A stretch of DNA of 64,000 nucleotides. Source: Haliotis cracherodii (lineage: Eukaryota). The DNA lies in the NCBI RefSeq assembly GCF_022045235.1, contig NW_027266286.1, positions 63,426,001-63,490,000 on the forward strand, given 5' to 3'. The notes under the pieces are model-generated. The model worked only from the letters and a program-made list of their open reading frames with translations. It made no database searches and was not told the origin of the DNA. The position numbers and the translations under genes are program-made. Of the stretch, positions 6,058 through 27,724 are shown piece by piece; the stretch's first letter is position 1, and each line of letters opens with the position of its first letter.

Positions 6058-7250
6058 AGTAGTAGATAAGTGATAAGTATCCATCCTCACATCCTCATTT
6101 GATGACGTCACAGGTGCACCTACTAACCTCACGTGACTGATGACGTCACATAACCTTGACCTTGGGGGGGGGGGGGTGGGGGGGGTGGGGGGTGTTGATG
6201 TTGTTGTCATGCGATCAATGACCTCGTATAACCTTGACCAATAACCTCGTTTAACAGTTGTATCAACAAACCATTTCCGGACAGTTGAAAGGAAAAACAC
6301 TTGTGTAAACACGAGATTGTTTTGAAAGGAAACACTTAAATCAACGAGCGCGTATTTGAAACGTCTCCAGTTACTCAGATTATTTTTTATCAGTTGTATC
6401 AACAAAGCATTTCCGGACAGTTGAATGGAAAAACACTTGTGTAAACACGAGATTGTTTTGAAAGGAAATACTTAAATCAAAAAGCGCGTATTTGAAACGT
6501 CTCCAGTTACTGTTAGTCGAGTGAGTGAAGGTACAGATTAGAATTTATCAGTTGTATCAACAACGCATTCCCGGACAGTTGGAAGGAAAAACACTCGTGT
6601 AAACACGAGGCTGTTTTGAAAGGAAATACTTAAATCAACGAGGGCGTGTTAGAAACGTCACCAGTTACTGTTATTCGAATGAAGCTACAGATTATTTTTT
6701 ATCAGTTGTATCAACAAGGCGTTCCCGGACAGTTGAAAGGAAAAACACTCTTGTAAACACGAGGCTGTTTTGAAAAGGGAACTACTCATATCAACAAGGC
6801 CGTCTCCAGTTAGTGTTTGAGAAAGGTCACATGCATATGAAAAAAAAATATATGAATAAATGCAGGAGTTGGTGATAGTTTTTTTCATTTACCATGGAGG
6901 AGTCAGCAGTACACACATCCATGACTCGTTCCACCTCAACCGACTCATGGAAGCTCTTTGGGAAAAGAATACCCAAAACAGAAGCTGTCTTTTTTTCTCA
7001 AATCGTTATCATTTATATCGTAGTGATAACTTGCATCGTGAATTTGAGTCTAAACCAAACCAATTCCAACATGTGGACCGCATTTCTCAGTTCACATACT
7101 TCCTAACCCAAAAATCAAATCTAAAAGAGTCACCCTTAACCCGCATGTGTTATATAGATAAACAAGCCAGTGGTTTTAATTTCATTAAAGCAGAACGTTT
7201 TAGACACACAGAACAAGTTAAATATTTTTTTCCTCTGCTGTTGAGATGGA
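6058..7250 (+). repeat. Left terminal inverted repeat (~1.2 kb)
   Basis: Reverse complement of about 26548-27724. Near-identical to about 7080, then more diverged. Contains four ~140-160-bp subrepeats starting at 6255, 6391, 6549 and 6703. Confidence 0.95.
6894..7139 (+). pseudogene. Frameshifted copy of the TIR-encoded two-TM protein
   Basis: Near-identical to 26666-26923 up to MWTAFLSS, then lacks 11 bp (GTGTCTGGGTT), giving a stop at 7106. Confidence 0.8.
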
Positions 7251-7810
7251 CGACTGATTCCCCAGCACAGTTGAAAGGAAACACTTGTGTAAACACAACT
7301 GTTGTGAAAGGAAATACTTGAAAAACAAGGGCGTTTCTGAGACCGTCTCTAGTTACCGTTACTCGAGCCCTACTGTAATTTGAATACACCTGGTTTTTTT
7401 ACCCTATAAATAACAGTGTTGTGACCTAAAATACTGCATTTGGTCTCTCTTGGTTCATGAATGAACATTGTGCTTATTCTCCATTACACAGGACTTTTTG
7501 GTCTCAATTTGGGAGAGATATATTTTCTGTGTGAAGGTAACAGTTTAATTTTTTTATTAATAGACCATATCTTTTTTAAAATGTATTTTCATAATACGTT
7601 TTATGTTATTACAAGTATTTCATATCATTGTTTCAATTTTTTGTAAAAACATTATCTGAGGATGTATTATAATTGTGAAATCATCATGTTGTCTTCATTA
7701 GTCTACACAGACATACCAATCTATTTTTATTTATTTTTTATTATTTATTTCAGAAAGATAAAAAGTATTCCAAGAACATTGTTTGCTAGACTTTATGTAA
7801 AAACAAAATA

Positions 7811-26022: not shown

Positions 26023-26547
26023 AATTTGAGGATGGTGGTGATGGTGTTTAGGCGTGGATCAGATAGAATGTGTTCAGACTTGAAATATACGTTCTTTATA
26101 GTCTTTCTTGTTTTTTGTTTTTTTCTTCTTCTCACAGGGGTTATTTACTTTCAGATACGGTGTTGTTAATATCAGCAGTTCCCTTTTCAAAACAGTCTCG
26201 TGTTTACACGTGTGTTGTTGTTTTTTTCCCTTTCAACTGTCCGTATACGTCTTGTTGATACAGCTGTTAAAATATAATCTGTAGGTTCACTCGAATAACA
26301 GTAACTAGAGACGTTATAAATACGCCCTCGTTGATTTAAGGATTTCCTTTCAAAACAATCTTGTGTTTACACAAGTGTTTTTCCTTTCAACTGTCCGGGA
26401 AACGCCTAGTATTTCCTTTCAAGACAGTATCATGGTTACGCAAGTGTTTTTCCTTTCAGCTGTTTTGGAAGGCCCTTCCGTGGGAACTGCACCATCACAA
26501 TGTTGACGTAGATGTTATCTTTCACTCATGTGAAATCCGTAGGTTCA

Positions 26548-27724
26548 CTGTCCTCCATCTCAACAGTCGGGGAAAAAAAATATGTAACTTGTTCTGTGTG
26601 TCTAAAACGTTCTGCTTTAATGAAATTAAAACCACTGGCTTCTTTATCGATATCACACGTACGGGTTAAGCGTCGCTCCTTTTAGATTTGATTTTTGGGT
26701 TAGGTAGTATGTAACCCAGACACGAACTGAGCAATGCGGTCCACATGTTGGAATTGGTTTGGTTTAGACTCAAATTCACGATGCAAGTTATCACTACGAT
26801 ATAAATGATAACGATTTGAGAAAAAAAGACAGCTTCTGTTTTGGGTATTCTTTTCCCAAAGAGCTTCCATGAGTCGGTTGAGGTGGAACGAGGCATGGAT
26901 GTGTGTACTGCTGACTCCTCCATGGTAAATGAAAAAAAACTATCACCAACTCCTGCATTTATTCATATATTTTTTTTTCATATACATGTGACCTTTCTCA
27001 AACACTAACTGGAGACGGCCTTGTTGATATGAGTAGTTCCCTTTTCAAAACAGCCTCGTGTTTACAAGAGTGTTTTTCCTTTCAACTGTCCGGGAACGCC
27101 TTGTTGATACAACTGATAAAAAATAATCTGTAGCTTCTTTCGAATAACAGTAAATGGTGACGTTTCTAACACGCCCTCGTTGATTTAAGTATTTCCTTTC
27201 AAAACAGCCTCCTTTCAATTGTCCGGGAATGCCTTGTTGATACAACTGATAAAATCTAATCTGTACCTTCACTCACTCGACTAACAGTAACTGGAGACGT
27301 TTCAAATACGCGCTTTTTGATTTAAGTATTTCCTTTCAAAACAATCTCGTGTTTACACAAGTGTTTTTCCATTCAACTGTCCGGAAATGCTTTGTTGATA
27401 CAACTGATAAAAAATAATCTGAGTAACTGGAGACGTTTCAAATACGCGCTCGTTGATTTAAGTGTTTCCTTTCAAAACAATCTCGTGTTTACACAAGTGT
27501 TTTTCCTTTCAACTGTCCGGAAATGGTTTGTTGATACAACTGTTAAACGAGGTTATTGGTCAAGGTTATACGAGGTCATTGATCGCATGACAACAACATC
27601 AACACCCCCCACCCCCCCAAGGTCAAGGTTATGTGACGTCATCAGTCACGTGAGGTTAGTAGGTGCACCTGTGACGTCATCAAATGAGGATGTGAGGATG
27701 GATACTTATCACTTATCTACTACT
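26548..27724 (-). repeat. Right terminal inverted repeat (~1.2 kb)
   Basis: Mirror of the left TIR. It differs by a shorter C-tract, a 21-bp deletion in subrepeat 3 and a few substitutions. Further degenerate subrepeats lie at about 26180-26470. Confidence 0.95.
26666..26923 (-). CDS. Small two-transmembrane protein encoded in the right TIR (85 aa)
   Basis: Hydrophobic segments AVFFSQIVIIYIVVITCIVNLSL and MWTALLSSCLGYILPNP, followed by a basic tail KIKSKR. Confidence 0.75.
   Translation of the reverse strand: MEESAVHTSMPRSTSTDSWKLFGKRIPKTEAVFFSQIVIIYIVVITCIVNLSLNQTNSNMWTALLSSCLGYILPNPKIKSKRSDA

Follow-up and report, generated by a model that had tools for sequence, protein, structure and literature searches.

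We asked whether a 21,667-bp element in the genome of Haliotis cracherodii, the black abalone, is an intact and recently active Maverick/Polinton or an insertion that has died without yet eroding. The element occupies positions 6058-27724 of a 64,000-nucleotide stretch of contig NW_027266286.1 (hereafter the window, to which all positions refer). An earlier note, made from the sequence alone, had described it as a complete and apparently intact endogenous polintovirus inside a host gene, recently inserted, probably polymorphic, and likely an undescribed lineage of mollusc virus. An integrase-type insertion into an intron, a complete set of open core genes, and near-identical relatives on other scaffolds were found, and we consider it likely that the family is a recently autonomous Maverick/Polinton of which this copy is essentially intact. 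The likelihoods attached here to this reading and to its rivals are not mutually exclusive.

Results

Element ends and insertion site

The element begins with AGTAGTAG at position 6058 and terminates with CTACTACT, of which the last base is 27724; its ends are AGTAGT on the left and ACTACT on the right, or (AGT)2//(ACT)2. The exact termini, perfect 6-bp target-site duplication (ACAGTC on both sides), and nearly identical outer inverted repeats given in the earlier note all stood. When the flanks were rebuilt without the element and with one ACAGTC, three successive 64-bp units of a host tandem repeat were obtained, with mutual differences of 2, 3, and 2 bases. Because the 64-bp period is restored and the units differ from one another by 2-3 bases, the repeat predates the element's arrival, and the 6-bp duplication is genuine. 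A 64-bp duplication made by the insertion itself was ruled out on the same differences, the clean 6-bp duplication accounting for the site.

Alignment of the two arms gave 1138 matches, 23 mismatches, and 6 gaps. No mismatch fell in the outer 470 aligned bases, which differ by 15 bases in a G tract, and the mismatches by thirds, from outside to inside, numbered 0, 7, and 16 (Kolmogorov-Smirnov p 4e-6; p 0.025 when only the first 1035 bases are counted). Simple, even decay after insertion is disfavored by this inward rise. The gradient is better matched by homogenization of the ends during replication, as in replication of the adenovirus type. Repeat units of 136-158 bases recur in the arms, with extra copies just inside both (6250-6836, 7267-7367, 26165-26463, and 26995-27547), and are possible replication or packaging signals. 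The terminal 143 bases folded no better than shuffled sequences, and an Rfam scan of the element returned no matches.

An insertion point within a tandem repeat, a multi-copy family at >99% identity, and, 5.5 kb downstream in the window, two N gaps bordered by inverted arms are the circumstances in which an assembly might collapse near-identical copies into a mosaic, overstating both arm identity and intactness. We find such an artifact scarcely credible here, as the 6-bp duplication is exact with the repeat period restored, the element contains no N (both N runs of the window lie outside it), its capsid carries a private residue absent from the sister proteins, and arms that differ at 23 positions and 6 gaps have not been collapsed.

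The host gene encodes an alpha-L-fucosidase in eight exons (1300-1670, 1829-1935, 2329-2459, 3446-3579, 4155-4252, 4562-4694, 5837-6007, and 29275-29506), which matched Pfam Alpha_L_fucos and Fucosidase_C (three exons scanned). The element lies 50 bases past the donor of the seventh and last intron, lengthening it from ∼1.6 kb to 23.3 kb. An exonic insertion was ruled out, as the eight exons yield an open 458-aa frame; the placement inside a host gene thus holds and is made more exact. The insertion is probably tolerated, because splicing of the intron can remove the element from the transcript and there is another fucosidase gene nearby. The viral genes lie mostly in the orientation of the fucosidase gene, and 28 AATAAA motifs occur on that strand, so that early termination of the fucosidase transcript inside the element is possible.

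The second alpha-L-fucosidase gene (34552-42233, minus strand) faces the first, and a degenerate copy of fucosidase exon 1 at 30873-31181 is 84% identical over 114 bases to 1591-1704. The host repeat (5969-6057 and 27731-27856) copies the end of exon 7 with its donor, placing two spare donors downstream of the element.

Integrity of the core genes

The six core open reading frames (ORFs), namely the polymerase, integrase, penton, major capsid, protease, and ATPase, are all open and together span 7881 nt. With their catalytic motifs present, the earlier note was right to find in them the full replication and virion gene set of Polintons/adintoviruses.

The polymerase is laid out as C2H2 fingers, an OTU-like Cys/His region, an exonuclease with an inserted endonuclease VII (HNH), and polymerase motifs A-C. 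It matched Pfam PF03175 above the cut-off (E 4e-21), in addition to C2H2 fingers and endonuclease VII. Among the 120 relatives listed of 870, the best were from Gigantopelta (58% identity over 64% of the length), Haliotis rufescens (42%), and Pecten (38% over 99%). The putative OTU Cys/His, the HNH residues, the three exonuclease motifs, and motifs A-C were each kept in 116-120 of 119-120 listed relatives; C283 and H391 were conserved in 118-119 of 119. On our reading of PMC11161782, these last two columns are the putative OTU pair. The N-terminal region in which a terminal-protein domain is expected aligned with the polymerase relatives, and no deletion of at least three residues was found past residue 88 in comparison to the 120. 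Departures from the wider family occurred at 45 of 245 conserved columns, the three closest gastropod relatives departing at 21-25%. Private changes numbered 6 of 245 (2.4%) as against 3/148, 11/245, and 9/201 in those three relatives (2.0-4.5%). A damaged polymerase was therefore rejected, the catalytic columns being intact and the private changes no more frequent than in relatives.

An alignment of 82 sequences, 81 of which came from the 120 listed matches, was used to model the 433-aa ORF; the predicted local distance difference test (pLDDT) score was 86.7. The model matched the double-jelly-roll capsids of iridovirus, Sputnik, PBCV-1, and mavirus (E 5e-16 to 1e-15), and the predicted structure confirms this ORF as the major capsid protein.

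The 144-aa ORF adjoining the integrase gene is a candidate penton with moderate support. It has nine relatives (best identity 76%), six of which are 142 aa; a truncated penton was ruled out because the full-length relatives are only 139-142 aa. Its model is all-beta (pLDDT 67) and superimposed on the mavirus penton with Z 7.3 and a root-mean-square deviation of 4.0 over 122 aligned residues, penton matches at Z 7.0-7.5 being tied with unrelated jelly rolls. The first structural match was the Omono River virus protrusion (Z 8.4), and the first in BFVD was an adintovirus protein.

The integrase retains its D, D, and E motifs and matched foamy-virus integrases. The protease retains its His, Asp, and Gln/Cys motifs, with an adenain match at 0.025. 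For the ATPase, the profile match was weak (Pox_A32, E 0.026, below the cut-off). PDB sequence searches with the polymerase profile and with the ATPase gave no meaningful match.

Relatives, copy number, and age

The copy number of the family was judged from the capsid match table, in which 120 of 186 relatives are listed. The capsid is identical at 432 of 433 residues to an H. cracherodii protein found on two contigs (the longest 70 Mb) and at 431 of 433 to another on a 41-Mb scaffold. Four further H. cracherodii clusters differ at 7-13 residues, giving six clusters at least 96% identical on five scaffold sizes. One of the two nearest proteins could be the same locus in another assembly, but not both. 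Identities among the listed relatives were 96-99.8% in H. cracherodii, 90% in H. rufescens, 80-82% in Haliotis asinina, and 73% in Gigantopelta.

In a tree of 31 of the 120 listed matches, a check that the earlier note had proposed, the element and the six clusters formed one clade of seven sequences with 100/100 support, sister to H. rufescens and then to H. asinina plus Haliotis rubra. Deeper branches hold further capsid lineages of these hosts and of Gigantopelta. One Gigantopelta capsid (73%) is nearer to this family than some Haliotis capsids are, several lineages coexisting per host. The results agree with a recent insertion having near-identical relatives, and with a mollusc virus, the closest capsids all being from abalone.

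Insertion age was bounded with the mutation rate measured in Haliotis sorenseni, 8.6e-9 per generation (PMC11704959). The absence of substitutions in the outer 470 arm bases gives a bound of 3.7e5 generations. That segment was delimited after the data had been seen, and a looser count is therefore also given: all nine substitutions in the first 1000 arm bases correspond to 5.2e5 generations (upper 9.1e5). With an effective population size (Ne) of 299,419 for black abalone (PMC11704959), the neutral fixation time, 4Ne, is about 1.2e6 generations. As the age bound lies below this time, the insertion is probably still segregating in the host population, as the earlier note had suspected.

Residence in the host genome and competing interpretations

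A host SINE-like repeat (short interspersed nuclear element) lies inside the element between copies of a 9-mer that has just these two occurrences in the window, and shares 87% identity over 245 bases with another copy, at 53100-53343. We take it to be of tRNA type, having read the B-box off the alignment ourselves. It carries a (CTCA)n tail, and further copies occur in the window at 44581-44735 and 40512-40691 besides that at 53100-53343. The SINE may have entered the present copy or an ancestor. Its presence indicates that the family spends long periods in the host genome.

The element also holds an inverted fragment of its major capsid gene, scoring 55 bits as compared to a maximum of 33 in 100 shuffles, with 39 of 45 bases matching in its core. 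The fragment is diverged and adjoins a (CA)/(GA) microsatellite. It could be a source of antisense or duplex RNA, or else a remnant of a related copy.

A currently infectious abalone virus, transmitted horizontally, recently integrated in the germline, and present as particles in animals or seawater, would account for the complete virion module, the conserved small virion genes, and the inhibitor-of-apoptosis (IAP) gene. It would also suit a capsid just 90% identical to its best H. rufescens relative and 73% identical to that of a distant snail, Gigantopelta, and the coexistence of several capsid lineages in one host; adintovirus particles in insect cells and excess DNA in cavefish are indicated indirectly (PMC8502044). 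The host SINE, however, marks a lineage that has lived in the host nucleus, and the closest capsids track host species (cracherodii, rufescens, asinina/rubra), the pattern expected of vertical residence. Among the 120 listed capsid matches, no unnamed or environmental one was near-identical, and the best unnamed one reached 78% over 61% of the length. We consider an infectious virus of this kind unlikely.

The element could instead be a dead but uneroded insertion, silenced or crippled by missense or regulatory damage, in a family that stopped moving up to 1-2 million years ago. Neutral decay in abalone is slow, and the core ORFs could stay open for 3-9e5 generations; in a vertebrate survey, only 134 of 3,511 Maverick loci (∼4%) were intact and 96% were degraded (PMC8097293). 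Several of our own observations also count against a recently autonomous family with an intact copy. The left-arm copy of the small membrane-protein gene is broken, the right accessory region harbors a SINE and a microsatellite, and some of the six private changes found where the polymerase is conserved may be damaging. Several of the sister capsids appear decayed, with 7-13 differences and one of them shorter. No near-identical polymerase (120 listed of 870) or penton (best 76%, n = 9) was found in the protein collection, so that whole young sister copies are deduced from the capsid alone. Finally, with 6 years to a generation the age bound allows up to about 2 million years, and more on the looser count. 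Against a dead insertion stand capsids on other scaffolds that differ by only 1-2 residues, the identity of the outer arms, and a rate of private polymerase changes no higher than in relatives, and we judge it somewhat unlikely. The description of the element as apparently intact holds for the core ORFs and their motifs, but not for the host SINE and the frameshifted left-arm gene, both of which had been missed.

Accessory genes and other features of the window

The coordinates of all features are collected in Table 1.

Table 1. Features of the abalone element and of the host gene that contains it
Feature	Coordinates	Strand	Basis
Host alpha-L-fucosidase gene, 8 exons, 458-aa open frame	1300..29506	+	Every border GT-AG, frame free of internal stops
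Host 64-bp tandem repeat, about 3.4 units, copies exon 7 end and donor; unit 2 split by element	5969..27856	+	
Target-site duplication, left copy, ACAGTC	6052..6057	+	Sequence comparison
Left terminal inverted repeat, ∼1.2 kb, starts (AGT)2, contains 136- and 158-bp tandem units	6058..7254	+	
Left-arm copy of small membrane-protein gene, frameshifted near 7094, stops after 70 residues	6894..7106	+	
Protein-primed DNA polymerase B, 1289 aa	7811..11680	+	Pfam, 870 relatives, alignment, motif columns
Accessory ORF A, 207 aa, CxxC..HxC motif	12128..12751	+	
Accessory ORF B, up to 236 aa, with a possible true start farther downstream	13333..14043	+	
Retroviral-like DDE integrase with C-terminal chromodomain, 367 aa	14250..15353	+	Pfam rve 8e-9, Chromo 8e-7
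Candidate minor capsid protein (penton), single jelly roll, 144 aa	15378..15812	+	Relatives, model, position
ORF C, 130 aa, PW/cupiennin-like slot (position only)	15829..16221	+	
Major capsid protein, double jelly roll (predicted), 433 aa	16230..17531	+	Model, structure match, 186 relatives
Adenain-like maturation protease, 166 aa	17540..18040	+	Pfam Peptidase_C5 7e-6 (above cut-off)
A32/FtsK-like packaging ATPase, 222 aa	18177..18845	+	Walker A and B, position
Single-BIR inhibitor-of-apoptosis gene, up to 151 aa, follows ATPase	18845..19300	+	Pfam BIR 2e-23
ORF D, 155 aa, conserved basic helical protein, PM/GasderminX slot	19351..19818	+	584 relatives, alignment
ORF E, 207 aa, PZ/Adintoc slot (position only)	19670..20293	+	
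Accessory ORF F, 111 aa	22124..22459	-	No Pfam or PHROG match
Inverted 63-base major capsid gene fragment, residues 23-43	22563..22625	-	
Accessory ORF G, 128 aa	23600..23986	+	No Pfam or PHROG match
Host tRNA-type (presumed) SINE-like repeat, 9-bp direct repeat flanks	24193..24457	-	
Accessory ORF H, 184 aa	25468..26022	-	No significant Pfam or PHROG match
Right terminal inverted repeat, terminates (ACT)2	26550..27724	-	
Small membrane protein, 85 aa, whole copy in right inverted repeat	26666..26923	-	Hydrophobic segment
Target-site duplication, right copy, ACAGTC	27725..27730	+	Sequence comparison

The zinc ligands of the BIR gene are present, and its product is 84% identical over 43 aa to a capsid-linked gene model of H. 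asinina. ORF C is 57% identical to the first part of a capsid-fused H. rubra gene model, and ORF E is 44-47% identical to capsid-linked models of H. asinina; in the Atlas, ORF E scored under 0.8, with no usable match. The acidic tail of ORF D, which overlaps ORF E, is kept by the closest relatives. The reading of ORF D as frameshifted, with its gene running on into ORF E, was ruled out, the five closest relatives being 153-168 aa and having the tail in common. One of 24 aligned ORF D family members matched adenovirus protein X (Adeno_PX), and a PDB sequence search with the ORF D profile gave nothing meaningful.

ORFs A and B are paralogues (28% identity over 104 aa), and ORF A had no Pfam or PHROG match. 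In the Atlas, the 85-aa membrane protein scored 0.93-0.97 to virus clusters, the commonest label at 0.97 being Preplasmiviricota. A PHROG search with 13 of 17 ORFs returned no families at E 0.05, with weak rows for ORF C only.

Elsewhere in the window, the two N gaps (33263-33396 and 33696-33847) stand beside near-perfect inverted arms of 76-77 bases and are probably assembly scars. An open stretch of 576 codons at 46874-48601 (minus strand) is mucin-like, with Thr-rich repeats of 39/42 bases, and minisatellite arrays at 54154-56421, 61596-62224, and 127-532 have units of 38, 43, and 85 bases, respectively.

Discussion

The preferred reading, that of a recently autonomous Maverick/Polinton family which spread through an abalone genome not long ago, suggests the following cycle. 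A linear copy would be released from the genome, as in the model for these families (PMC8097293, PMC8502044). The polymerase would then prime at the AGT-repeat ends via its own terminal-protein part, which would be freed by the OTU-like protease (both steps as in the model of PMC11161782). Strand-displacement synthesis together with pairing of the arms would keep the outer repeats identical while their inner parts drift. New copies would then go one of two ways: back into the genome through the chromodomain integrase or, through the ATPase, into double-jelly-roll capsids that the protease would mature, with the BIR protein holding off apoptosis. We infer that the family behaves as a provirus or transposon with retained virion potential. 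A bolder proposal would be a still-replicating, particle-forming virus of a gastropod-specific clade, inserting today in the germline of an endangered species, ferrying host retroposons such as the SINE between genomes, and carrying its capsid fragment as a built-in antisense control; we think this very unlikely.

Maverick/Polinton particles have not yet been observed (PMC8097293, PMC10748475). Intact copies are a minority, and this coding-complete, young, multi-copy family is a practical target for the virion question. Its host belongs to a genus that is farmed and well sequenced and for which population and pedigree data are public, and the family is a good place to seek new insertions, expression, and free genomes. 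For the endangered host itself, a 21.7-kb insertion may be segregating in an enzyme gene.

Comparison with known systems

The anatomy described here is standard, and there are earlier reports of intact Mavericks, of mollusc adintoviruses that carry IAP genes, and of Maverick repeats in abalone. DNA/Maverick repeats are reported in Haliotis discus hannai (PMC5439488), adintovirus elements of Pinctada and Mytilus and IAP labels appear in the text of Fig. S2 of PMC8502044, and coral polintoviruses are expressed (PMC11131425). A 2026 bivalve preprint lists 107,631 viral regions, abalone being absent from its main text (10.1101/2025.04.19.649669). We found no paper describing this abalone family in the literature searched, which did not cover subscription journals or Repbase. 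The suggestion of an undescribed lineage therefore stands insofar as no paper found names the family, but its capsids are already in RefSeq and intact Mavericks of the same anatomy are published (PMC8097293). Dozens of RefSeq proteins from four Haliotis species and Gigantopelta, annotated as host proteins under the name 'uncharacterized protein F54H12.2-like', are Maverick major capsids of this family and its relatives, some of the models being fused to neighboring viral ORFs; many abalone gene models of that name are thus viral.

Abalone (H. rufescens) elements with polymerase, integrase, and capsids were already counted among the mollusc pPolB2 Polintons of PMC10748475, which assigns its pPolB1/pPolB2 to group 2 and reports that the mollusc subgroup carries a VSR insertion. 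The present polymerase has an endonuclease VII/HNH insertion instead, common to most of its listed relatives from many animals, and is set apart from that subgroup by description only.

With the Beta adintoviruses of PMC8502044 (Adintoviridae since renamed Eupolintoviridae; PMC12451622), the element has in common an OTU-bearing polymerase weakly matching PF03175, a chromodomain integrase, hexon, penton, adenain, an FtsK-type ATPase, a protein-X-like accessory gene, and an IAP. It differs in that no LxCxE 'oncoid' motif was present in the seven accessory ORFs scanned. The element is probably of group I/Beta type, a placement made by description: the weak PF03175 match fits what PMC8502044 says of the Beta elements.

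A close parallel in layout is with the intact group I Mavericks of vertebrates (Barreat and Katzourakis, PMC8097293), whose clade, as that paper also mentions, includes marine mollusc elements. The features by which an intact Maverick is defined in print include terminal (AGT)2//(ACT)2 or (AG)3//(CT)3 (PMC8097293), and every feature of that definition for which we looked was found: the element is an intact Maverick/Polinton (Eupolintoviridae). It resembles the vertebrate elements in its (AGT)2//(ACT)2 ends and 6-bp duplication, and it fits their ranges of size (12.7-24.6 kb) and inverted repeat length (46-1447 bp). The core genes are likewise intronless and follow the same order: integrase, then the minor capsid and PW slot, next the major capsid with protease and ATPase, and last the PM and PZ slots. 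ORFs C, D, and E occupy the PW/cupiennin, PM/GasderminX, and PZ slots, respectively, and these putative identities are by position. Most vertebrate elements are built as two opposed modules, whereas all core genes of the abalone element lie on one strand with the polymerase first, a single-stranded layout that is also seen in the Xenopus tropicalis Maverick (PMC8097293). The abalone element is further distinguished from the vertebrate Mavericks by its gastropod host and by the BIR gene that it carries between the ATPase and the PM slot.

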